Below are positions 2,104 through 63,764 of a stretch of DNA of 64,000 nucleotides, in pieces (position 1 is the first letter of the stretch; the number at the start of each line of letters is the position of its first letter). The position numbers were made by a program, and so were the translations under genes. The stretch comes from Octopus vulgaris (Eukaryota), in contig OX597816.1 in the NCBI GenBank assembly GCA_951406725.2, positions 3,100,001-3,164,000 of the forward strand. Direction: 5' to 3'. The notes below the pieces were generated by a model. It saw only the letters and a list, made by a program, of their open reading frames with translations. It was not told where the DNA came from and did not search any database.

Positions 2104-2470
2104 GGCGGTGAGGTCTTCACGCCCTCAGTTCAAATTCTGCCGAGGTCGACTTTACCTTTTATCCTTTCGGGGTCGATAAAATAAGTACCAGTTGCATACT
2201 GGGGTCGATGTAATCGACTCAACCCCTACCCTAAAATTGCCGCCCTTGTGGCAAAATTTGAAACCATTATTATTATTGTTGTTATTAAGGCGGCAGAATC
2301 GTTGGCGCGGCGACAAAAATGTTTAGCGTTGTTTTTTCCGGTTCTTAAATACTTCGGAGGCCAACCTTGCCTTTTTGTCCTTTTGGAAGCGATAAAATAA
2401 AGTATCAGTTGATCACTTGGATCCCTGTAGTCCACTATGCCCCTCCCCTCAAAACAGTTGGCCTTGTGTA
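2104..2470 (+). mobile_element. Two decayed family-A SINEs (tRNA-like head plus Nin/Deu-like domain)
   Basis: gttcaaattctgccgaggtcgactttaccttttatcctttcggggtcgataaaataagtaccag at about 2128-2191; second, more degraded copy from about 2289. Confidence 0.85.
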
Positions 2471-4714: not shown

Positions 4715-5160
4715 CACTGCCTGCTAATACTATCCTAGGACTATTTTCTCTATGTTATGGGTCGGTTGGAGGTTTTCAATTACGCATTTCTCTGTATATT
4801 TATTAAATCATTCCCAAAGCATCTACCATTGCAGAGATTATTTCTGTTTCTGGCCACCAGATTCGGGTTATCTCTATTTCCAGATCTCTATATTTTGATA
4901 ATTTCTCCATTTCCTTTTGAGCTAAATTATCTGTTAGGACTGATTTATCGTTTAGCGGACATTTCTTTTCCTGGTGGTCCTTAAGATCAATATCTGGTCT
5001 ATTAATCTTCTCACCTTTGTCTGTGTGTATTGGTATATCCCAGGCTATGGTCGCTGTGCCATTCTTAGAAGCCGCTACTGCTCCATGTCTATATTTGCCC
5101 CACTTCTCTTGATGTTTTATGACAGAGCTATAACTTCCAGTGTAAGTCCCAACGCTCTCG
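4715..5160 (-). mobile_element. Decayed R4/Dong-like LINE, restriction-like endonuclease region
   Basis: Minus-strand translation gives WDIPIHTDKGEKINRPDI and KEMEKLSKYRDLEIEITRIW, matching the better-preserved copy at 17170-17608. Confidence 0.75.
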
Positions 5161-5616
5161 AGGAGGCGATGGATATATTCTTTCTTGGCTAAGACCGAAC
5201 AGCCAGAGAGAAAGAAAGGGAGAAAGAGAAGAGAGAGAAGGGAGGGAGATTAATCGTTTCTTTCCCTTCACAACATCTTTAATATCTCTATTTTAGTGCA
5301 TCAGTCGAAGAATCCACTTTCCATTCAACTTCATCTATTATTTTACTTAAACTGGTGATATTGATGGATGTATTTGTTTTGATTAAATCTCCCGTTGTTG
5401 TTGTTGTTGCAATTTTTTCTTCGATTTTTCTCTCTCCCCCCAGAGACACTTTCTTTGGTCCACAGCAATATCTACTCTTAGTCATTTTGAAAATATTTCC
5501 ACAATCTTCGTCGCCTTCTGTTTCATTTATATTCTTGTTTATGTTCTTCTGAGTCAGTTTTTGCCGGTCAGTTTTATTGAAGATATTCAAAGGCTTCGAT
5601 GTGTTAGGTTTTGATA

Positions 5617-5949: not shown

Positions 5950-6960
5950 TTTACGATGGTTAGTTCTTTGTGGTTTATATTATCGATGTTTTTATAATTA
6001 TTAATTGTTTGAGTTCGTCACCTTTGTTTTTCGTAATAAATTCTTGCCTTTGAATCTCATATTTCTATTTCTGGTATTTTGTGTTTGAGAATTCATCTTC
6101 TTAAGTTACCTAACCTGTTGGGTATTCAGTGATAGTTATAGATCCGAGTTGTATTCCCTCCACATTTTGTCTTACTTTCGCTTTGAAATTAGAGTGTTGC
6201 TGTAAAATATAGATGCAGAATCAACACACAGGCCTCTCACGTTCGTATATGTCTTTTCTGGTTCATCTGCTAGTCTTGAGGAGTAAAGACCATCAATGAT
6301 TAACCAGCATCCCAGAAATGCTGCTCTGAACGGAATTAATGGTGCGTTAGTCATCGTGCCCGACATCAGAAGGACCAGGAGGAGGAAGAGGAGAAGAAGA
6401 AAGAGAAGTAGGAGGAGCAAGAAAAGAAGACTGGGTATTTGTATTGAGAGCAGAGTAGAATATTTCGCTAAGGAGGTCTAATAAGGCGTAAACGCTCCCG
6501 TTACTGTTACAACTAGGTTTTAAAGATACAATTCACTTCTGACGTCATTATCTTTATTATCTAACAACTGATTTTATCTCCTTTCGTTGTCTCCTTTTAA
6601 TTTATAAACACCTCCATAACGAACTTATTTCTCTACTAAATGCTTTACTACTCTCAGTCAATAGAAGGTTTTTCAACTCACTGCATTACATTGTATTCCA
6701 GTGTGCGAGATGATCTTCCGGTGGTAGATTTATATCAGCCATATTGCTGACCTTTGTAGCTAACACATTAACCATTCGTTCTGTGTTTCTCGCCCCCAAT
6801 CTCTCTGCAAATGCATTCACATAAAGTGTTTTACGTCAGAAGCATTCAAGTCATTTCTTTCAGCTTATTTATGTTTTGATTATGTAAATTAACCTCCTCC
6901 ATAAATGCCTTCTTTTTCTGGTACATAATTACGTCTTATTCCTGCCGGAGTCAAAATAGA
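5950..6960 (-). mobile_element. Heavily degraded LINE reverse-transcriptase remnants, possibly continuing the R4/Dong-like element
   Basis: Weak peptide resemblance only, with many stops. Confidence 0.3.
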
Positions 6961-6970
6961 GTAACTGCTG

Positions 6971-7553
6971 TCATCATCATTCATCATTGTTCGACCGTGG
7001 TCGAGACAATGGAATTTACCATGCTACGCCAGACTTCACGGTCCATCATAGCATTACGGAGGTCCTGTTGCTGGATGCCTGTATCCCTGGAGATTACATC
7101 AGGGTAGGAGAGTGTGTGTCCTCTGGTATTGCGAGTAGATGGCTTCCAGAGGAGAAGAGCAGAAATTACCTCGTTTTCAGCTCTACAACAATGTCCAGCA
7201 AACTGGAATCTCCTACCTTTCACAAGAGATGACACAGGTGGTAGTTTCCCATATATTTGCATTTTGGTTGGATGGCGCCTCCACAAGAGATTTTGAGCTC
7301 TCATAAGGAGGCGAGTGTAAGTTCCATCCAACTGCCTCTCAAGCTTCTTTGATAACGTCCAGGTTTCTGAGCCATATAGTAGAATTGGTTCGACTGTGGC
7401 TTTGAAGATTTCAAGTTTGAAGTCTCTACTTAGATTTGATGACCAGATCTTATGCATGTCATTACAGGCTGACCAGGCCATACCCTTTCTAGTTAGAAAG
7501 TCTTTTCCAGATGATGATATGTATGACCCAAGATATTTATAATCAGAAACCAT
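6971..7553 (-). mobile_element. 5'-truncated RTE-group LINE (ORF C-terminus)
   Basis: ORF 6984..7553 contains YKYLGS, ILLYGSETWTL and FAGHC; it ends in a short (ATG)n-type tail. Confidence 0.9.
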
Positions 7554-7886
7554 ATTTAAGGGCGCACTGATGACGTACAGTGAGGCAGAAACACGTGTCT
7601 CAGCTGGCAGACCTCAATATACTTATGATTTAGAGTAAAGGATCTGCTGAGTACACAGCACGATATGAATTAATGATTGACAAAAGAACAAGAGTTAAAT
7701 AACCCCCTTCATTATCTTACAACTGTTTTTGCTATGGGAAGCATTGCTCGGCAAGTAATGTTGCATAAATGACTCCGAGGAAGCCATAACATGTTGCATG
7801 GGCACTCAGCACTGCGTGCAATGACTTCTTGTTGCAGAAACAGCTACAAGCTAATGAAAGTGCTTAGGTAACTCCTGCTCTTTTGA

Positions 7887-13045: not shown

Positions 13046-14310
13046 TCAGGTCATTTAGAATGAAATGTCCAATTTTGAACTGAAAATTTATTTTACTTTA
13101 TCTCAACAAAAAGCAATGCAGTTAATCAAATTATCAACAGAATTTTGCCATTTTATCGGCAGCTTATTTATGCCGGCAGTGAAGAATTCTGGAGAGCAAG
13201 AGTTGATGAAATCACGAAAGGCTGTTTTTGCATCTTCGTCAGATTTGAAGTTTTTTTCCTTGACAAAAGTTGTCTAATGCCTAGAAAACGTGATAGTCAG
13301 TTGGTGCAAGGTCTGGTGAATATGGTGGGTGACAGAGTACTTCCAAGTTCAGTTCTTGTAACTTGAGTAACGCTCTTTGTGCAACACGTGGTCAAGCATT
13401 GTCTTACAAGAGAATTGGCCAGTCTCTCTTGACCAATCTCGGTTCTTTAATTGCAAGTTCATTCATCATTTCATCCAATTGGTTAATGTAGACATCCACT
13501 GTAATTGACTTACCAGGTCTCATAAAGCTGTAGTGGAAGACACCAGCGCTGGATCACCAAACAGACACTATTAGCTTTTTTTGGTGAACTTCTTTTTTGG
13601 ATTGTCTTTCGGCACTTCGTCTCTATCGAGGAGAATGCTTGCTATTGTTGAAAAGGATCCTTTTTTCATCACATCTAACAATACAATGCAAAAATGGTTC
13701 ACTTTGAAGCCGTGACAGCAAAGAACAGCAAGTTTAAAGATGACGAGTCATTTGATGCTCGTTCAGTTCGTGTGGTACCCACTTGTCCAACTTCTTTACC
13801 TTGCTGGTTTGTTTCGGATGGTCCGATACAATTGGAATCGAAACATGAAGCCTTGCTTCTAACTCACACTTAGTTTGAGATGTATTCGCTTTCACTACAG
13901 TTTCCAGCTCATCATTATCCACCTTGGTCCCAGGTCTACCACGGGACTGATTTTCAAGAGTAAAGTCACCAGACAGGAACATCTCGAACCATCGACGTAC
14001 AGTGCACTCAATCGACACATCTTCACCAAACACTTCATTGATGTTTCCAGCTGTCTGGGATGCATTGGTTCCACGACGGAGCTCATACTCATAAACAATA
14101 CGAATTTTTTTATCTATCCATGGGTTCACAAAAATTGATTTACAAGAGAGAACTTTCAATCTAATCAGACACCATGAATTGTATTTCGAAAAGTGATTAT
14201 CTAACTTTTCAATGTTGTACAACATAGAATTATCAAGATAAAACATTAGGATTAACGACTGTCAAACTTAGTGCATAAGAAAATCAAACATTTCATTCTT
14301 AATGATCTGA
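13046..14310 (-). mobile_element. Full-length decayed mariner element
   Basis: ORF 13734..14246 has TVRRWF, RGRP and WVPHEL. Imperfect ~31-bp TIRs (tcaggtcatttagaatgaaatgtccaatttt vs reverse complement tcagatcattaagaatgaaatgtttgatttt), flanked by TA. Confidence 0.93.
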
Positions 14311-15229: not shown

Positions 15230-16230
15230 CATAAGCCTAATGAGAAGCTTGCATATATACATAAACAATCTTGTCACCCTCATGAAATATTTAAAGACCT
15301 TATAGCTAACATTAGTAACAGAGTGTCTGACCTCTCTTCTTCTAAAGAAATTTTCGAGAAAGCAGCCCCTTACTATAACAATGCTCTAGCCAATAGTGGC
15401 ATCTGAGATAAATTAATACAGAATCCCTCTAATAATCAAAATATTAATAATAGATCTAGTGGCATCAAAGATAAAGCAGTACTTAACCACACTGGTATTA
15501 ATCAGAATAATAATAAGAAACCTAAAAATGAGCCAAGGAAAGTTCTTTGGTTCGCCTTTCCCTTTTCCCTTAATATAAAAACTAACATTGGTAAAATATT
15601 CCTGTCATTCCTAGACAAACACTTTCCAGCAACTCACAGATACAGGAAAATATTCAAATGGCTTTCTGTGAAATTATCATGCAGCTGGTGCCCCAATATG
15701 AAGAGTATCATTACACGTGGTCAACACCAAGAAACTGACTCCAGCTGCAACTGTCGTGACCCAGGGTCCTGTCCACTTAACCAACACTGTATGACTAAAT
15801 CTATCATATACGAAGCAGAAGTTACTGCAACCCTAAATAATAATACAACCGATAAGAAGACCTATATTGGATTATGTGAAGGAGAATTTACAAATCGCTG
15901 TGCCAATCGCACGCATCGGGAAAAAAGTAAAGCTACGAAGTTGGCTATCGTACGTATGGACTTTGTAAGATAACGAAACACCGCAAGTGATTAAATGGAA
16001 AGTAATTGAGAAATCCATACCTTATGGGAATGGATCGAATAAATGTAGACTTTGTTTGGCTGAAAGAGCACAGATCCTGTTCAGATCTAAGATCCCTCTA
16101 TTGAACTCCAGGTCAGAAATTTTCACTAGTTGCATGCATATATATAAATATATTTTGAAGAACTGGAAAATTCCATCTGTTCCTGACGGACTCCATATCT
16201 TTCCAGCCTTATCATTTAACGTCTAAGGAG
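15230..16230 (+). mobile_element. Penelope-like element, RT thumb plus GIY-YIG endonuclease (decayed; possibly Naiad-type)
   Basis: SCHP...WFAFPFSLNIKTNIGKIFL.FLDKHFP, CNCR...CPL, SIIYEA...YIGLCE, CRLCLAE and LNSRSEIFTSCMH, with stops and frameshifts. Confidence 0.9.
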
Positions 16231-17007: not shown

Positions 17008-17169
17008 GTTTTTTCCTTCTTTCTTCAAATTTTCTTCCGTTTCTCGCCGAGTGTTTTCCATACACCTAGGGCAGAGAAGGGCATTGTATGCATTCCCAGA
17101 TTACACACGCAAATTCACAGATAAAATATGTATTTAAAAATTAATAAATAAATAAATTCATGGACGGAT

Positions 17170-17603
17170 GTTATTTTCACAGCGATAATGCTCTTCTCAG
17201 TACATGAGCCGTTCAAGTTAATACGATTTTTTGCACTTCCTGTAGGGATGGTGAGCCTGGAATCATTTTCAAATAGGTTTCAGTACCTTTTTTTATCATT
17301 CCTAGAGATCCTACAATCACTGGTATGTAGTCGCTTTGAGATGCCACATTTTTTCAATTTCTATTAGCAGGTCTTTATATCTACTAATCTTGTCAAATTC
17401 TTTTGTCGCTATATTGTGATCACAGGGAATACTCATGTCAATTAATAAACACATCCTTTTTGTCTGATCTTTTATAATGATATCCGGTTTATTAGCTTTT
17501 ATAGTCCTGTCGGTCTGGACGGGGAAGTCCCATAGAATCGACACATTTTCTCCCTCAGTCACAGCTTCAGGATGATGTTTATACCATTTGTCAGCGGTTT
17601 TGA

Positions 17604-17608
<5 letters not shown>
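17170..17608 (-). mobile_element. R4/Dong-like LINE 3' fragment (REL endonuclease)
   Basis: ORF 17317..17682 contains ILWDFPVQTDRTIKANKPDIII...LIDMSIP...KISRYKDL...MW; 5'-truncated against (TAA)n. Confidence 0.88.
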
Positions 17609-17651
<43 letters not shown>

Positions 17652-17868
17652 GAAGGTGGTGAGCTGGTAGAATTGTTAGCACGCTGGACGAAATGCTTAG
17701 CGGTATTTTGCCCGTCGTTACGTTCTGAGTTCACATTCCGCCGAGGTCGACTTTGCCTTTCATCCTTTTGGGGTCGATAAATTAAGTACCAGTTGCGTAC
17801 TGGGGTCGATGTAATGGACTATCCCGCTGCCCCAAATTTCAGGATTTATGTCTATAAGAGAAAGGCTT
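17652..17868 (+). mobile_element. Family-A SINE, tail type B
   Basis: Full head plus Nin-like domain. Confidence 0.87.
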
Positions 17869-17884
17869 ATTATTATTATTATTG

Positions 17885-22763: not shown

Positions 22764-22799
<36 letters not shown>

Positions 22800-23299
22800 A
22801 TGTTTAGAAAATAGTTTATCTTTAACAGAAGAGGAAAAGGATGACTACTTTGTTTTTGAACTTTATAAGATAAGGTTGGATTCCAGGGAAGCATTCGAAG
22901 AAATTCACGACAATGTTACCAATGCTTGTTTTGTCGTAGCAAAGGAAGGATACGGAACGTTTCGATGCCGTCCGTTTGGCGTCGCTGCTTTGACGCTGAC
23001 TTATTTGATATTGGAAGTTTTAATGGTTCTTTCGTTCTCTCCCACCCTTTCTCTCACACACGCCCTTTCTATCCATGTGTATATTTCTGCTTTCAAGGTG
23101 TGTATTTGCATCCAGCGCCAAAAAGTACTGCCATCAGAAACAGACCGAATGTTCTGTCAGCCGAGGCACATCATCAGCGCCTAAATAGCTACGCCCAGTC
23201 GTCTCATTACAGCACTAAAGATACCAAAGTAAAAAAAAAAAATCAATCAGTCGAATGCAACTGAGGAAACTGACCGAAGATTTGCTTGGAAATGGATTG

Positions 23300-29358: not shown

Positions 29359-29390
29359 GATGCTGCTGCTGATGATGACGACGATAATGG

Positions 29391-29423
<33 letters not shown>

Positions 29424-29760
29424 CGACGATAATGATGATGATGATGATGATGATGACGACGATAATGGTGATGATGATGATGATGATGATGATGATGACG
29501 ACGATAATGATGACGATGATGATGATGATGACGACGATAATGGTGATGATGATGATGATGATGATGATGATGACGACGATAATGATGACGATGATGATGA
29601 TGATGACGACGATAATGGTGATGATGATGATGATGATGATGATGATGACGACGATAATGATGACGATGATGATGATGATGACGACGATAATGGTGATGAT
29701 GATGATGATGATGATGATGATGACGACGATAATGATGACGATGATGATGATGATGATGAG
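29359..29760. repeat. (GAT)n array with 75-bp higher-order period
   Basis: acgataatggtg recurs at 29381, 29459, 29534, 29609 and 29684. Confidence 0.93.
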
Positions 29761-30210
29761 GATTATGATAATTGTAATGATAGTGAAACCTGTCCGTCTG
29801 TAGCATAAATTTTGTCTTGGCTTGCAATTTCCCCGTTTTCCTCTGCATGTATGCACGTAAGTATTGCACCTATGTGCATACGTACGCATGCACGTACGTA
29901 TGTACAGTCATACACATATTTCTTTTACTCTTTTACTCGTTTCAGCCATGCGGCCGCGGTCATGCTGGAGCACCACCGTAGTCTTGCTGATTTCTTCCAC
30001 ACGATCGTTAAAGACATTATGGTACCGCTTTTGAAAGTAGACAAAAAAAAAAAAGAAAAAAAAAATCCCTTTAATTGAAGGAACTTTATTTTAAAATGCG
30101 AAGAAAATGATAAACCTCCTTTGCTTAAATTCTCTCAAGAAAACTTAAGAATAAATAATTGGCTTTCTCTAATAAACCTTAAGAAACTTTCTATCTAATC
30201 AGAAGTACCG

Positions 30211-30531
<321 letters not shown>

Positions 30532-30536
30532 TTCTC

Positions 30537-31456
30537 ATTCTGGGCGTCGACGACTGTTCAAGACGACTTTAGGGCCGGGACCTATGGACAACTTCCAGAG
30601 ATCCCTGGCCTGGAAGTGCTATCGAGAAGCGCTACCCGTTCGGGATAAGCTATATAGACATGGTTCGAGAAACACGGGGCCGACCTGTCCGAGATGCGGT
30701 CAGAGCGACGAAACCGTTCTGCACGCACTCGTGCAGTGTCCAACAATTTCCGACCTGTGGGCTTATGTCGAACGACTGCTGTCACGTGTGGGACGTGTCG
30801 GTTTATCAGCCGAGTCTATCGTTAATATCGTCACGCCTCCTTCCTTCAAACGGGAAGGAAGAGCTATTTTCATCATCCTTGTGGCTATGGCGAAAGAGTG
30901 TATCTGGTGGACGCGTCTGAAAGGATTGGAGACAAACACTTTCCTCTCTGGTCAATCTCTCATCAACTTCTTCAAGTACCACTTGAAAAGGAAAGTGAGA
31001 GTAGAGAGGCAAGTTTTGTCGAGCGAATGTTTTAAAAAAAGATGGGTGAATGTAGCAAGGATAGCACTATGAATGACGAAGCCACCTTGAGCATAATCCT
31101 ATGAACCCGGAAATTGAAAGCAGAGGGCTACCTACTTGCAAACAAATGTGGTAACATGTAACATTATTGACCGAGGTTACCGTGGTCTTTTCCGTAGGCT
31201 TTTCTTCCCACGGATAAACCTTATCTGCTTCCTCCTTTACACTTTACATCATGACACTGTGATACACGATCCCTATTGATCGTTTTTTCTGTTTTTTCTT
31301 TTTTCCCTTTTTTCTTTATTTTCCTTCTTTCTCTTTTACGATCCCTTTTGATCGAAAACCTACCCCACTTTTTTTTTCTCTCCCCCAAAAAGAAAAGCTC
31401 TACTTTTTAATCTGTCCCGTCTGTGTGCAGCCCTGTGTGGCTAATAAAGAAACATA
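30537..31456 (+). mobile_element. 5'-truncated Tx1/L1-clade LINE: zf-RVT C-terminus plus 3' UTR
   Basis: ORF 30584..31072 contains CPRCGQSDETVLHALVQC...LW (CCHC knuckle) and IWWTR, followed by a T-rich UTR; (TATC)n on both sides. Confidence 0.88.
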
Positions 31457-31524
31457 TCTATCTATCTATCTAGCATTTTTGAAAGGGTGAAATAAAATTA
31501 CCTAATAATAAAATGTTGTTTAAA

Positions 31525-31890
31525 TATTAGCACAGGACCAGCAAGTTCGAGGAGGGGGTAAATTTATTATATCGACCCTAGTGCACAACTGGTATTTTCT
31601 TATTGACCCTGAAGGGTTGAAAAGGTGAAGTCGACCTCGGCAGAATTTGAACTTAGAACCTAAAGTCGGACGAAATGCAGTTAAGCGCGTTAACGATTCT
31701 GCCAGCTCGTCGCCTTATATATTATTTAATAATATTAAAGCGGCGAGCTAGCAGAATCGTTGGCGCGCCGAACAAAATGCCTACTGGTATTTCGTCCGTC
31801 TTCACGTTCTGAGTTTAAAATTCCACCGAGGTTGTCTTTGCCTTTCATCCTTTCAGGGTCGATAAAATAAGTACCAGTTGTGTACTGCAT
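31525..31890. mobile_element. Head-to-head pair of family-A SINEs (minus to 31714, plus from 31740)
   Basis: Both carry the head and Nin-like domain; 25-bp AT spacer. Confidence 0.87.
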
Positions 31891-32679: not shown

Positions 32680-33078
32680 TATTTCTTTACTTTACAGAGA
32701 GGACAAACAAGGACAGACAAACGGATTAAGTCGATTATATCGACCTTAGTGCGTAACTGGTACTTATTTAATTGATCCCGAAAGGATGAAAGGCAAAGTC
32801 GACCGCGGTGGAATTTGAACTCAGAATGTAAAGACAGACAAATACCTATTTCTTTACTACCCACAAGGGGCTAAACACAGAAGGGACAAACAAGGACAGA
32901 CAAACGGATTAAGTCGATTACATCGATCCCAGTACGTAACTGGTACTTAATTTAATCGACCCCGAAAAGATAAAAGGCAAAGTTGACCTCAGCGGAATTT
33001 GAACTCAGAACGTAACGGCAGACGAAATACAACTACGCATTTCTCCCGGCGTGCTAACGTTTCTGCCAGCTCGCCCGC
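32680..33078 (-). mobile_element. Family-A SINE dimer
   Basis: Two units joined at aaatacc|tatttctttac (32846|32847). Confidence 0.92.
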
Positions 33079-34399: not shown

Positions 34400-34985
34400 T
34401 AATGGCACCACATGACTGGATTTGCTAAACCCCTTTTGAAGTCAGGTTTTGTGGTATCATGGCCCATTCGAGTAGAGAGTTCTTGTTGAGTGAGTTGTAT
34501 CCAGGCATAGGTGTCTTATCTGGTATTCCTTTTTAGAAGTGATGGGATCCTTTTTCTCTTTGATCGTTTTGGGGATAATGTTAAATAGGAAAGGGCCTGT
34601 TGAGGTAACGAAATAGTGTTGCAGTGTATTTATGTGTTGTGATCCTGAATTGGGTAGGGAACGCATGGACCGGTGGTCCTAGCCTTGGATGTATTCTGAA
34701 ACTAATGTTGAGGCCGCTCGGGCAATGTTGGTGATATATTCTCCACATGGAGCAAATGATGCATCGCTCACTGCGGCGCTGGAGAGAATAGAGATTCAAT
34801 GCTTTAAGGCGGTCCCAATAATCGAGATCGATCGTGCCCTTAATTTGTTTAGTGAATACCCTCTAGCATGATTCAATTTTCGAAATGTTTTTGTTTTGTG
34901 CAGGGGGCAGCACAGTATTCTAAACAAAACTGTCCGACGAACGGGAACGTGAAACTTTGAGTAACAGTTTTTGTGATATTTTTTG
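34400..34985 (-). mobile_element. CR1-group LINE 3' fragment
   Basis: LEYC...KIES..RVFTKQI...DYWDRLKALNLYSLQRRSER and GPFLFNIIPKTIK. Confidence 0.8.
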
Positions 34986-38309: not shown

Positions 38310-38713
38310 CCTTTCTACTGAAGGCACAAGACCTGCCTGAAATTTTGGGGGAGGGGACCATTCGATTACATCGAACCCAGTGTTTCACTGGTACTTAATA
38401 ATTTATCGACCCCGAAAGGCTGAGAGGCAAAATCGACCTCGGCAGGATTTGAACTCAGAATGTAGCGGCAGGCGAAATACCTGTTTCTTCACTACCCACA
38501 AGGGGCTAAACACAGAGAGGACAAACAAGGACAGACAAACGGATTAAGTCGATTATATCGACCTCAGTGCGTAACTGGTACTTATTTAATCGACCCCGAA
38601 AGGATGAAAGGCAAAGTCGACCTCGGCGGAATTTGAACTCAGAACGTAACGGCAGACGAAATACCGCCAGGTATTTCGTCCGGCGTGCTAACAGTTCTGC
38701 CAGCTCGGCGCCT
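38310..38713 (-). mobile_element. Family-A SINE heterodimer (tail-B unit plus tail-A unit)
   Basis: Junction gaaatacc|tgtttcttcactaccc at 38481|38482. Confidence 0.9.
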
Positions 38714-40350: not shown

Positions 40351-40936
40351 AGTATATTGATATTGTTTATGCGGCGGCGGCGGCGGCGGCGATGGTGGTG
40401 GTGATTGTGGCGGCGACGGCGGCGGTGGTTAAGGATTTGAAGATGATTCGTGTTCGGGTGAGGGTTCGTGGTGGGAGAACTTGTTGTTCCTCTGGCGACG
40501 CACGCGCGCACACACACACGCACACACACACGCACACACACAAACACACATACAGAAACACGCGCTCATTGAGGTCCCACCACACTCACCCTTTCCGCCT
40601 TCACTCTCCCCCCCCCACCGCCTCTTTAAACTTTAAGCCTCACCCGTGGCCTGTCTGCCTGTCTGTCTGCCTGCCTGCTTGTCCGCTCGCGCGCGCGACC
40701 GTTCTCTCTTCTATTCATACAAGCGTACAAATCACACACACACACAAATACAATACACACACACATACAGACAGCTACATACATACACACTTACACACTT
40801 ACACTCACGCGCGCACTCCCGTGCCCCTCTCTCTCTATCTCCAACTCCTCCCCCTTCATACGTACAAACTCTTACTCTCCCTTCTCTCTCATCCATTCAT
40901 TCATTCACCACTGCTTATTACTCCCGCTCTCTTCTA

Positions 40937-41309
40937 CCTTCTCCCTCTCCCCTCTCTCGCTCTCCTATCCACTTCTCCCTTCTCTCTCTCCCCTCTCTCG
41001 CTCTCCTATCCACTTCTCCCTTCTCTCTCTCCTCTCTCTCGCTCTCCTATCCACTTCTCCCTTCTCTCTCTCCCCTCTCTCGCTCTCCTATCCACTTCTC
41101 CCTTCTCTCTCTCCCCTCTCTCGCTCTCCTATCCACTTCTCCCTTCTCCCTCTCCCCTCTCTCGCTCTCCTATCCACTTCTCCCTTCTCTCTCTCCCCTC
41201 TCTCGCTCTCCTATCCACTTCTCCCTTCTCTCTCTCCCCTCTCTCTCTCTCCTATCCACTTCTCCCTTCTCCCTCTCCCCTCTCTCGCTCTCCTATCCAT
41301 TTCTCCCTT
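40937..41309. repeat. Minisatellite, 9 x 41 bp, pyrimidine-rich
   Basis: tcctatcca recurs every 41 bp from 40963 to 41291. Confidence 0.95.
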
Positions 41310-41572
41310 CATATCATTATTATCATTATTATTATTGTTATTATTATTGTTATTAATATCGCTCGCGCCCCCCTCCTCCTCCCTGCCTTGTCCTTCCTTC
41401 CTTCCTTCCTCTCCCTCTCCCATTCTGCGGTTCCTGTCATGCCCTTCCCCTCGATATATATCTGATCTGTTACACTGACTGGCAACAAGCTGCTTGAGGT
41501 GAGCAGCCGTTTAAAACACACCAGAAATGTCGCTTAATTTGTTTAGTTCTTCGCTCCGTCAGTCGCAGCCGG

Positions 41573-63008: not shown

Positions 63009-63764
63009 TATTTCTTTACTACCCACAAGGGACTAAACACAGAGGGGAGAAACAAGGACAGACCAGTGCGTAACTGGTACTTAATTTATCGACCCCGAAA
63101 GGATGAAATGCAAAGTCGACCTCGGCGGAATTTGAACTCAGAACGTAGCGGCAGACGAAATACCTATTTCTTTACTACCCACAAGGGGCTAAACATAGAG
63201 GGGGACAAACAAGGACAGACAAAGGGATTAGGTAGATTACATCGAACTCAGTGTGTAAATGGTACTTAATTTATTGACCCCGAAAGGATGAAAGGCAAAG
63301 TCGACCTCGGCGGAATTTGAACTCAGAACGTAAAGACAGACGAAATACCTATTTCTTTACTACCCACAAGGGGCTAAACACAGAGGGGACAAACAAGGAC
63401 AGACAAACGGATTTAGTCGATTACATCAACCCCAGTGCGTAACTGGTACTTATTTAATCGACCCCGAAATGATGAAAGGCAAAGTCGACCTCGGCAGAAT
63501 TTGAACTCAGAACGTAGCGACAGACGAAATACCTATTTCTTTACTACCCACAAGGGGCTAAACACAGAGGGGACAAACAAGGACAGACAAAGGGATTAAG
63601 TCGATTACATCGACCCCAGTGCGTTATTGGTACTTAATTTATCGACCCCGAAAGGATGAAAGGCAAAGTCGACCTCGGCGGAAATTGAACTCAGAACGTA
63701 GCGGCAGACGAAATACCGCTCGGCATTTCGCCCGGCAAGCTAACGTTTCTGCCAGCTCGCCGCC
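63009..63764 (-). mobile_element. Family-A SINE tetramer (~185-bp units; only the 5'-most unit has the full head)
   Basis: Units start at 63009, 63165, 63350 and 63534; every junction reads gaaatacc|tatttctttac. Confidence 0.95.

Follow-up and report, generated by a model that had tools for sequence, protein, structure and literature searches.

A SINE heterodimer in Octopus vulgaris shares its hairpin-loop junction with two other SINE multimers in a 64-kb window

INTRODUCTION

The octopus SINEs OK, OR1, and OR2 were reportedly described by Ohshima and Okada in 1994. Two later papers cite these tRNA-derived elements but do not agree on which of them, OR1 or OR2, belongs to the CORE group (PMC4758252; PMC4824008). 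An expansion of a "tRNA-Core" SINE has been reported for octopus (PMC8967140). The SINE group analyzed in this study resembles OK/OR1/OR2 and the octopus tRNA-Core SINEs in that it resides in an octopod genome, possesses a tRNA-like head and a center that looks CORE-like by eye, and occurs at high density, with 25 units in a window of 64 kb (the whole stretch of Octopus vulgaris DNA that was analyzed, 64,000 nucleotides). Within this window some units are fused into multimers at the loop of a head hairpin, unlike anything described in the available portions of the octopus SINE accounts (PMC4758252, PMC4824008, and PMC8967140). Neither loop-junction multimers nor an L1/Tx1 tail partner in octopus was found in the literature searched; Ohshima and Okada (1994), Albertin (2015), and Repbase/Dfam may describe them.

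SINE dimers, mixed tandems, and tail swapping are already known, and the exchange of modules has mostly been deduced from consensus sequences. Like the TSD1-(SINE)n-TSD1 arrays of the blood clam S. broughtonii, the octopus multimers contain one full head, after which come units that all lack the head up to one fixed point, and some of the clam tandem structures, as far as the excerpted text goes, include another family (PMC11481361). In the clam, however, the first and inner units are without part of the tail, as in an internal duplication, and the array as a whole lies within a single TSD (PMC11481361), whereas in the octopus multimers the inner tails are complete, the inner units differ, and a significant TSD was found in none. 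Heteromeric SINE tandems are also formed by B1-B2 in mouse and Dip-B1 in jerboa (PMC8466645) and by the crocodilian SINEU-3 tandems that sandwich a TSD (PMC4494074), but in those described in the excerpts the units are of full length or are set apart by a TSD or tail spacer, whereas at the octopus junction the spacer is absent and the second unit starts at a fixed internal point. Squamate SINE satellites, for which an origin by unequal recombination or repeated insertion has been proposed, likewise consist of tandem units that do not reach the length of the SINE and have its start intact (PMC10702118); the octopus arrays differ from them in comprising two to four units, in not being homogenized, and in that one ends in the tail of a different family.

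The tie between the octopus SINE and a Tx1-type LINE is comparable to that of SINEU, mobilized by Tx1-Mar, except that the SINEU link was drawn from a shared target and, in the portion cited, no LINE with the SINEU-1 3' end was found, whereas the octopus SINE shares 40 nt with a LINE 3' end (PMC4494074). U6-L1 chimeras and R2 template jumping provide a precedent for two RNAs placed end to end in one retrocopy, but as described they join whole RNA ends, whereas a downstream octopus RNA would need a precise cut at the hairpin loop (PMC8857657). What is distinctive in octopus is the combination of complete inner tails, no spacer, a start at the hairpin loop that is exact to the base, and a foreign terminal tail.

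RESULTS

One SINE group with three tails

The window has the character of microsatellite-rich animal DNA and contains one SINE group, of which 25 units, from about 20 regions on both strands, were aligned. A unit measures about 230 nt and consists of a head of about 50 nt, a common body of about 120 nt, and one of three tails, termed A, B, and C. The distance and tree analyses covered 19 unit bodies, six units that were old or partial being set aside. SINEBase defines a SINE as a short (<1 kb) interspersed repeat present in many copies, with a head at least 60% identical to a tRNA (PMC3531059). The group is short, interspersed, and present in many copies in the 64 kb, which extrapolates to a genome-wide number of 100 copies or more. 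No true tRNA was detected in the SINE heads by ARAGORN or Rfam, and the putative tRNA derivation of the head is therefore based on the A-box-like and B-box-like motifs present in the units. Likewise, no ribozyme or other Rfam family was detected at the gathering score, and the E-value mode returned only subthreshold matches, mostly to microsatellites. Compared by eye, the central domain is identical at 11 of 15 bases to the 3' part of the oyster Cgi_CORE_1 core (PMC4758252 supplement). The supplements of PMC5804259 and PMC4758252 contained no OK, OR1, or OR2 sequences. A 23-nt pattern from the SINE core had no match in a genome-contig collection where no octopus DNA was found, and comparison of the window LINE protein with the collection gave 109 candidate stretches, none of which was confirmed. 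In most tails a GAAA is preceded, at a distance of about 10 nt, by a small hairpin whose loop is of the CTTGT type, and the tails are thus not wholly unrelated; the shared hairpin is likely to act as a recognition element for reverse transcriptase.

Anatomy of the heterodimer

The dimer lies on the minus strand, where a full tail-A SINE (38714-38482) runs straight into a headless tail-B unit (38481-38310). Both tails quoted in the initial annotation, A in the 5' unit and B in the 3' unit, are present where it had placed them. The A-B dimer, of which a dimeric SINE family such as Alu would have many dispersed copies, occurs as one copy in the window and has the following features.

38817-38715, minus strand: 5' flank, with a candidate TSD copy at 38719-38715 and an (ATC)n microsatellite
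38714-38666, minus strand: tRNA-like head of unit 1, the sole head of the dimer, with an A-box-like motif at 38702-38687 (from sequence and alignment)
38680-38655, minus strand: head hairpin, with arms at 38680-38670 and 38665-38655 and a tetraloop at 38669-38666; predicted folding energy, -19.6 kcal/mol
38654-38548, minus strand: body of unit 1, with a B-box-like motif at 38640-38630, a CORE-like central domain (by eye), and A-type variants
38547-38482, minus strand: tail A, with a terminal hairpin loop at 38502-38498, ending in GAAACA; its last 42 nt match the LINE 3' end at 31413-31454
38490-38474, minus strand: seamless junction, between 38482 and 38481, with a spacer of 0, no untemplated bases, and an overlap of at most 1 to 2 nt
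38481-38361, minus strand: unit 2, headless, starting with GGTATTTC at 38481-38474, with a B-box-like motif at 38456-38446
38360-38310, minus strand: tail B, with a terminal hairpin loop at 38330-38326; aligns with the tails at 43355-43311, 17818-17868, and 52704-52660
38310-38292, minus strand: 3' flank, a (GTT)n run, with a candidate TSD of 4 to 5 nt at 38310-38306 that was not significant

The (ATC)n of the 5' flank is likely an expansion of the tail that ends an older SINE upstream (39020-38838), and a T4 run in unit 2 (38432-38429) may represent a Pol III stop. As the initial annotation had argued, local tandem duplication alone cannot give this dimer, since the bodies of units 1 and 2 differ by 13.7%, along their whole length, and the tails align only at the terminal hairpin. 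Unit 2 was 11 to 14% distant from most tail-A units and 16 to 23% from tail-B units, differed at 11 of 117 positions from the tail-A majority versus 18 of 117 from the non-A majority, and was at least 10.8% distant from all other units in the window. It carries a non-A base 10 nt past the junction, and no crossover point could be placed within it from the diagnostic sites. The dimer head diverges more than the body and tail of unit 1 (7/46 versus 8/183; P = 0.015), and other tail-A heads are likewise diverged (19/184; P = 0.43 versus the dimer head). Its two diagnostic sites are split, one being non-A and the other tail-A-like, and no subfamily could be assigned to the head.

A seamless junction at one nucleotide

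All five seamless junctions in the window, at three loci, fall at the same nucleotide, the first base past the head tetraloop. The two loci besides the heterodimer are the following.

63764-63009, minus strand: tetramer, all units with tail A, with junctions at 63534/63533, 63350/63349, and 63165/63164; its units carry differing variant sets
33075-32677, minus strand: homodimer with tail A, with one seamless junction at 32847/32846

The heterodimer is accordingly fused at the site at which the tetramer units are fused, as had been noted before, and the homodimer shares this nucleotide too. Provided that the three loci are independent, their use of one fixed site in a unit of 180 nt greatly exceeds what chance would give. 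Exactly one full head is present in each of the three multimers, and tail A stands upstream in all five junctions. By locus, tail A precedes the seamless junction in 3 of 3, versus 3 of 14 copies outside seamless arrays (Fisher's test on a hand tally; P = 0.03). The statement that only tail A appears at internal junctions therefore holds for the seamless ones, but tails B and C are internal in two other tandems.

43500-43109, minus strand: a unit with tail B and, after it, one with tail C; an AT-rich motif resembling a TSD is present three times
2107-2470, plus strand: tail-C copy with a large head deletion, ATT repeats, and then an older full-head copy

In the former, the first unit has a 20-nt head deletion and the second begins about 11 nt upstream of GGTATTTC. 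Both are ordinary sequential-insertion tandems, of the same type as those of rodents and SINEU-3. None of three stand-alone 5'-truncated copies starts at the junction site (GGTATTTC; GGUAUUUC). The homodimer ends in a 3-nt GGT stub (32679-32677) that matches the start of a further unit, for which the estimated chance is about 1% per end and about 5% over the five terminal tail-A ends. Two further arrangements of SINE sequence were observed: at 31517-31890, two copies on opposite strands face each other with their heads across an AT-rich spacer, and at 63000-62975 (minus strand), just downstream of the tetramer, a stretch resembles a degenerate SINE head by eye.

The head hairpin and the proposed pairing of tail A

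The head is predicted to fold as a 13-bp stem with a tetraloop, at -11 to -20 kcal/mol in seven heads. In the consensus structure of 10 heads the stem is conserved, with mostly one-sided changes (1 of 25 pairs changed on both sides), and the 3' arm of this hairpin supplies, with its first base, the start of the headless units. A perfect 11-bp inverted repeat was found in the dimer head only, compared with at most 6 bp in nine other heads; it possibly results from quasi-palindrome correction or from the repair of a cDNA hairpin. Both G-U wobble positions of the dimer hairpin (38680-38655) read A.

According to the initial annotation, tail A ends in a complementary GAAAUA-like sequence and is alone in appearing at internal junctions, as a pairing model predicts. 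The proposed helix of tail A and arm comprises 6 bp and -3.6 kcal/mol, versus -12 to -20 kcal/mol for the native hairpin in tail-A heads; since this pairing is far weaker than the native hairpin, the 3' arm must first be freed. At the dimer's own junction the claimed ending does not occur: tail A ends in GAAACA rather than GAAATA, as does the LINE 3' end described below, which leaves the helix with one mismatch and -1.6 kcal/mol, and the helix was absent from the predicted junction fold of the dimer. On the other hand, the best pairing site of the tail-A end across the whole monomer is the 3' arm adjoining the junction, and with a freed arm the last 20 nt gave -7.2 to -10.5 kcal/mol for tail A and -2.5 to -6.9 kcal/mol for tail B. 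Tail C reaches -10.9 kcal/mol over 20 nt yet never stands at a seamless junction. By these predicted energies the tail-A end pairs with the arm more strongly than tail B does, but the pairing is weak, is mismatched in this dimer, and is matched in energy by tail C. Moreover, the tail-A-only pattern is equally predicted by an inherited junction and by the insertion of tail-A elements into resident heads, and it therefore cannot select the pairing model.

Tail A matches the end of an L1/Tx1-type LINE

Two reverse transcriptase elements of this type lie in the window.

30532-31454, plus strand: 5'-truncated L1/Tx1-type LINE, with the ORF end at 30539-31072 containing zf-RVT, inside a (TCTA)n run
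60409-59459, minus strand: second L1/Tx1-type reverse transcriptase fragment, older, frameshifted, and without a 3' end

The last 40 nt of tail A are identical at 33 of 40 positions to the 3' end of the former LINE, which has AATAAA where the SINE has AGTAAA. Against 1,000 shuffles the match had a P value of about 0.001 for 3 of 3 tail-A copies, with scores of 48 to 52 versus 15 to 25 for tails B and C. The Dong/R4-like (17010-17610) and RTE-like (6940-7613) LINE ends gave no match as tail donors with a P value below 0.049, and no LINE partner for tails B and C was found in the window. The named best relatives of the LINE are from Argonauta hians and Octopus bimaculoides; the Argonauta protein, 63% identical, contains RVT_1 and zf-RVT and has L1 ORF2p as its best PDB matches, and its own relatives add PF03372 (APE). 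Judged by these sequence comparisons, the partner LINE is of the L1 type, and its domain layout, its microsatellite target, and the L1-Tx1 elements reported in coleoids (PMC8967140, in part) are the grounds for its putative placement in the Tx1 clade. The 3' end of the LINE at 30532-31454 is the likely source of tail A. This match is new here and goes beyond the initial annotation.

Other elements were observed in the window. At 17010-17870, the Dong/R4-like LINE end (minus strand) has a (TAA)n run on either side; a tail-B SINE, oppositely oriented, is inserted in the upstream one, and a second Dong-like fragment is located at about 4800 to 5250. A Mariner fragment with HTH_48 lies at 13734-14261 (minus). 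By their motifs, we take the fragments at 6984-7613 (minus) to be RTE-like, 15407-15973 (plus) to be Penelope-like, and 34581-34862 (minus) to be CR1-like. Two minisatellites, at 40931-41310 (41 bp, 9.3 copies) and 29370-29767 (75 bp, 5.3 copies), are homogeneous, with 97% matches. The stop-free stretch at 22780-23010 (plus) reads like a coding exon; in a search for host genes, no Pfam family was found in three stop-free stretches, this one included.

TSDs of monomers and multimers

TSD candidates were tested under two nulls. Seven of 12 monomer-type copies had TSDs that were significant under both, two were borderline, and three had none. All three tail-A monomers had a significant TSD, of 13 to 17 nt and with an AT-rich start, compared with none of the three multimers for a bracketing TSD (P = 0.10). 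The clear TSDs of the tail-A monomers and of the LINE start with A or T and never with GG; most TSD starts contain TATT, and so does the junction site. For the dimer, the initial annotation had looked to a single TSD bracketing both units, and the best match was a 5-mer (P = 0.17 to 0.25) within the microsatellite flanks. Put together, these flanks form a triplet microsatellite that stays in phase, as would be so at one insertion site, although the argument is weak. The flanks of the tetramer share a 12-nt stretch matching at 8 of 12 positions, which may be a decayed TSD.

When units 1 and 2 were searched singly, neither had its own TSD (scores of 3 and 4), contrary to what nested insertion predicts and in keeping with the initial annotation. 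No spare head fragment was found upstream of the dimer. The lack of an internal TSD, of a spacer, and of any additional piece of head upstream speaks against sequential tandem insertion and excludes a plain nested insertion.

Relationships among the units

Unit divergence was 7.6% within arrays, ranging from 3.9 to 14.5%, versus 9.4% between loci. In a rolling-circle, retrozyme-like multimer made from one circular RNA, the units should be identical and a self-cleaving ribozyme should be present. Such copying was rejected on both counts, the units differing by 3.9 to 14.5% and no Rfam ribozyme being present; diverged units with differing variant sets exclude recent duplication as well as the copying of one circle. 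The headless units at 63349 and 32846, which belong to separate arrays, share junction-proximal variants that are absent from 5 of 5 head-bearing tail-A copies, and their distal variants match two different head-bearing lineages, as expected of an inherited, recombined junction-bearing segment.

Among 10 tail-A units, 20 of 45 informative non-CpG site pairs were incompatible with a single tree. Incompatibility did not depend on distance (4 of 10 near versus 16 of 35 far pairs; permutation P = 0.33), and recurrent mutation is therefore possible, so that recombination among tail-A units is only suggested by these sites. One linked site pair is explicable as a slippage shift of one T. The tree of the 19 unit bodies is a star, with 0 of 16 inner branches supported and no supported headless clade. 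At least two or three junction-proximal variant sets occur among the five headless units, which calls for several origins or for crossovers within about 14 nt. A non-A-like base was present within the first 18 nt of 4 of 5 headless units versus 0 of 5 head-bearing tail-A units (P = 0.048, for columns picked after looking). A tail-B monomer is similarly close to tail-A units, at 8.9 to 14.5% from 9 of 10 of them. Adjacent units of the arrays were identical over their first 15 nt in only one of five pairs.

DISCUSSION

We tentatively favor a reading in which the dimer derives from an older tail-A multimer whose downstream half was exchanged with a tail-B copy through the shared 120-nt body. The junction would have been made once or a few times, probably at the RNA or cDNA level because it sits on a loop boundary. 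Head-bearing multimers would be read through by Pol III, since no T4 run occurs in the tetramer or in monomer 48393, the youngest monomer, an observation that is compatible with Pol III transcription in an indirect manner. The multimers would then be retroposed as units by LINE machinery, and homologous exchange would add units and swap tails, either because reverse transcriptase switched templates, from tail-B RNA to unit 2 within a multimer RNA, or because the DNA repair of a resident tail-B copy drew on a multimer as donor. For mollusc SINEs, recombination and template switching have been discussed as ways in which modules are exchanged (PMC4758252, in part). R2-type template jumping is described as requiring prior nontemplated addition (PMC8857657, in part), and the absence of added bases in five of five junctions thus argues for an inherited junction, as do the GGT stub, which is expected of a longer multimer template, the lack of stand-alone copies at the site, the single head per multimer, and the position of unit 2 nearer the tail-A majority. 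Against it stand the star tree, the several proximal variant sets, the lack of a placeable crossover, and the non-A base 10 nt into unit 2; the closeness of unit 2 to tail-A units is seen in a tail-B monomer as well. Whole-unit retroposition does not predict that none of the three multimers has a significant TSD, and an inherited junction alone gives no reason for its position at the loop.

That position would be accounted for by recurrent de novo end joining, a rather unlikely alternative in which a SINE RNA, whatever its tail, undergoes cleavage immediately 3' of the tetraloop, the tail-A end pairs with the freed arm, and ligation or a reverse transcriptase jump follows before insertion. The junction lies exactly at the first base past the tetraloop of a hairpin conserved in 10 heads, the arm is the best site of the tail-A end and is bound more strongly by it than by tail B, array units differ almost as loci do and carry differing variant sets, and the non-A-like bases near the junction in headless units, although taken from post hoc columns, are in line with it, as are the precedents of RNA preligation chimeras of human L1 and of template jumping (PMC8857657, in part). 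The 6-bp helix, however, is far weaker than the native hairpin, mismatched here, and absent from the junction fold; tail C, with its comparable energy, is never found at a seamless junction; the junction shows no heterogeneity and no stand-alone copy shares its site; and neither an Rfam ribozyme or other family nor a significant bracketing TSD was found. The conclusion of the initial annotation that two different RNAs were joined stands in part: sequence of two subfamilies is combined, and two different templates are combined under both the exchange and the end-joining models, but end pairing at the junction is not forced, and the inherited junction predicts the same pattern.

It is improbable that a tail-A SINE, using a sequence-preferring Tx1-type endonuclease, inserted itself at GGTATTTC in the head of a resident SINE of any tail, with the 5' end resolved by homology; equally improbable is the corresponding assignment of the head and unit 2 to an old host and of the unit 1 body to a newcomer. 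Such self-targeting would agree with the resemblance between tail A and the end of an L1/Tx1-type LINE, with the preference of many Tx1 families for repeats as targets (PMC4494074, in part), with the TATT that the site shares with most TSD starts, with a head more diverged than the rest of unit 1 and carrying a non-A base at one diagnostic site, and with the deletions and an insertion that lie in terminal units. The clear TSDs, however, never start with GG, only about 14 heads are present among 370 TATTT sites and yet five junctions fall there, and the first 15 nt are nonidentical in four of five adjacent pairs despite TSDs of 13 to 17 nt. Other tail-A heads are equally diverged, the second diagnostic site is tail-A-like, and the non-A base could stem from palindrome correction. 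The GG start and the nonidentical first 15 nt make target-primed insertion into the head less likely, with DNA repair that used a multimer as donor still a possible route. It is very unlikely that a tail-A unit was duplicated locally in tandem and that a tail-B copy then converted the last unit. Such a sequence of events accounts for the single head, and gene conversion is to be expected among abundant repeat copies, but breakpoint microhomology is at most 1 to 2 nt, the same breakpoint recurs at three loci, and units 1 and 2 are 13.7% apart along the whole body. Least likely of all is an assembly chimera or an ectopic deletion that joined a tail-A multimer to a tail-B copy from another site. 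The lack of a significant TSD and the two different microsatellites in the flanks would agree with it; the flanks nevertheless join into an in-phase triplet run with a duplication of 4 to 5 nt, as at one insertion site (a weak argument), and unit 2 is too far from every other unit for ordinary repeat collapse.

With one locus and five junctions to go by, the preference among mechanisms is provisional. Predictions that differ and can be counted follow from the favored inheritance with homologous switching, from RNA end joining, and from self-targeted insertion, and the multimer system looks abundant: the base-exact hairpin-loop junction occurs at three loci in 64 kb and, if this density holds, extrapolates to thousands of natural replicates per genome. 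The dimer is most likely an inert by-product without a function of its own, and no host function is suggested. We regard it as doubtful that octopus SINE RNAs, cut at one fixed phosphodiester bond 3' of a tetraloop like that of a tRNA anticodon arm, are joined time and again, by splicing or by a jump, to the 3' end of a sister RNA with a Tx1 tail, a mimic of the lost arm; if this were true, structure-guided trans-joining would build hetero-multimeric retrocopies and shuffle LINE tails between SINE families. The match between tail A and an L1/Tx1-type LINE names a candidate mobilizer for a young octopus SINE.
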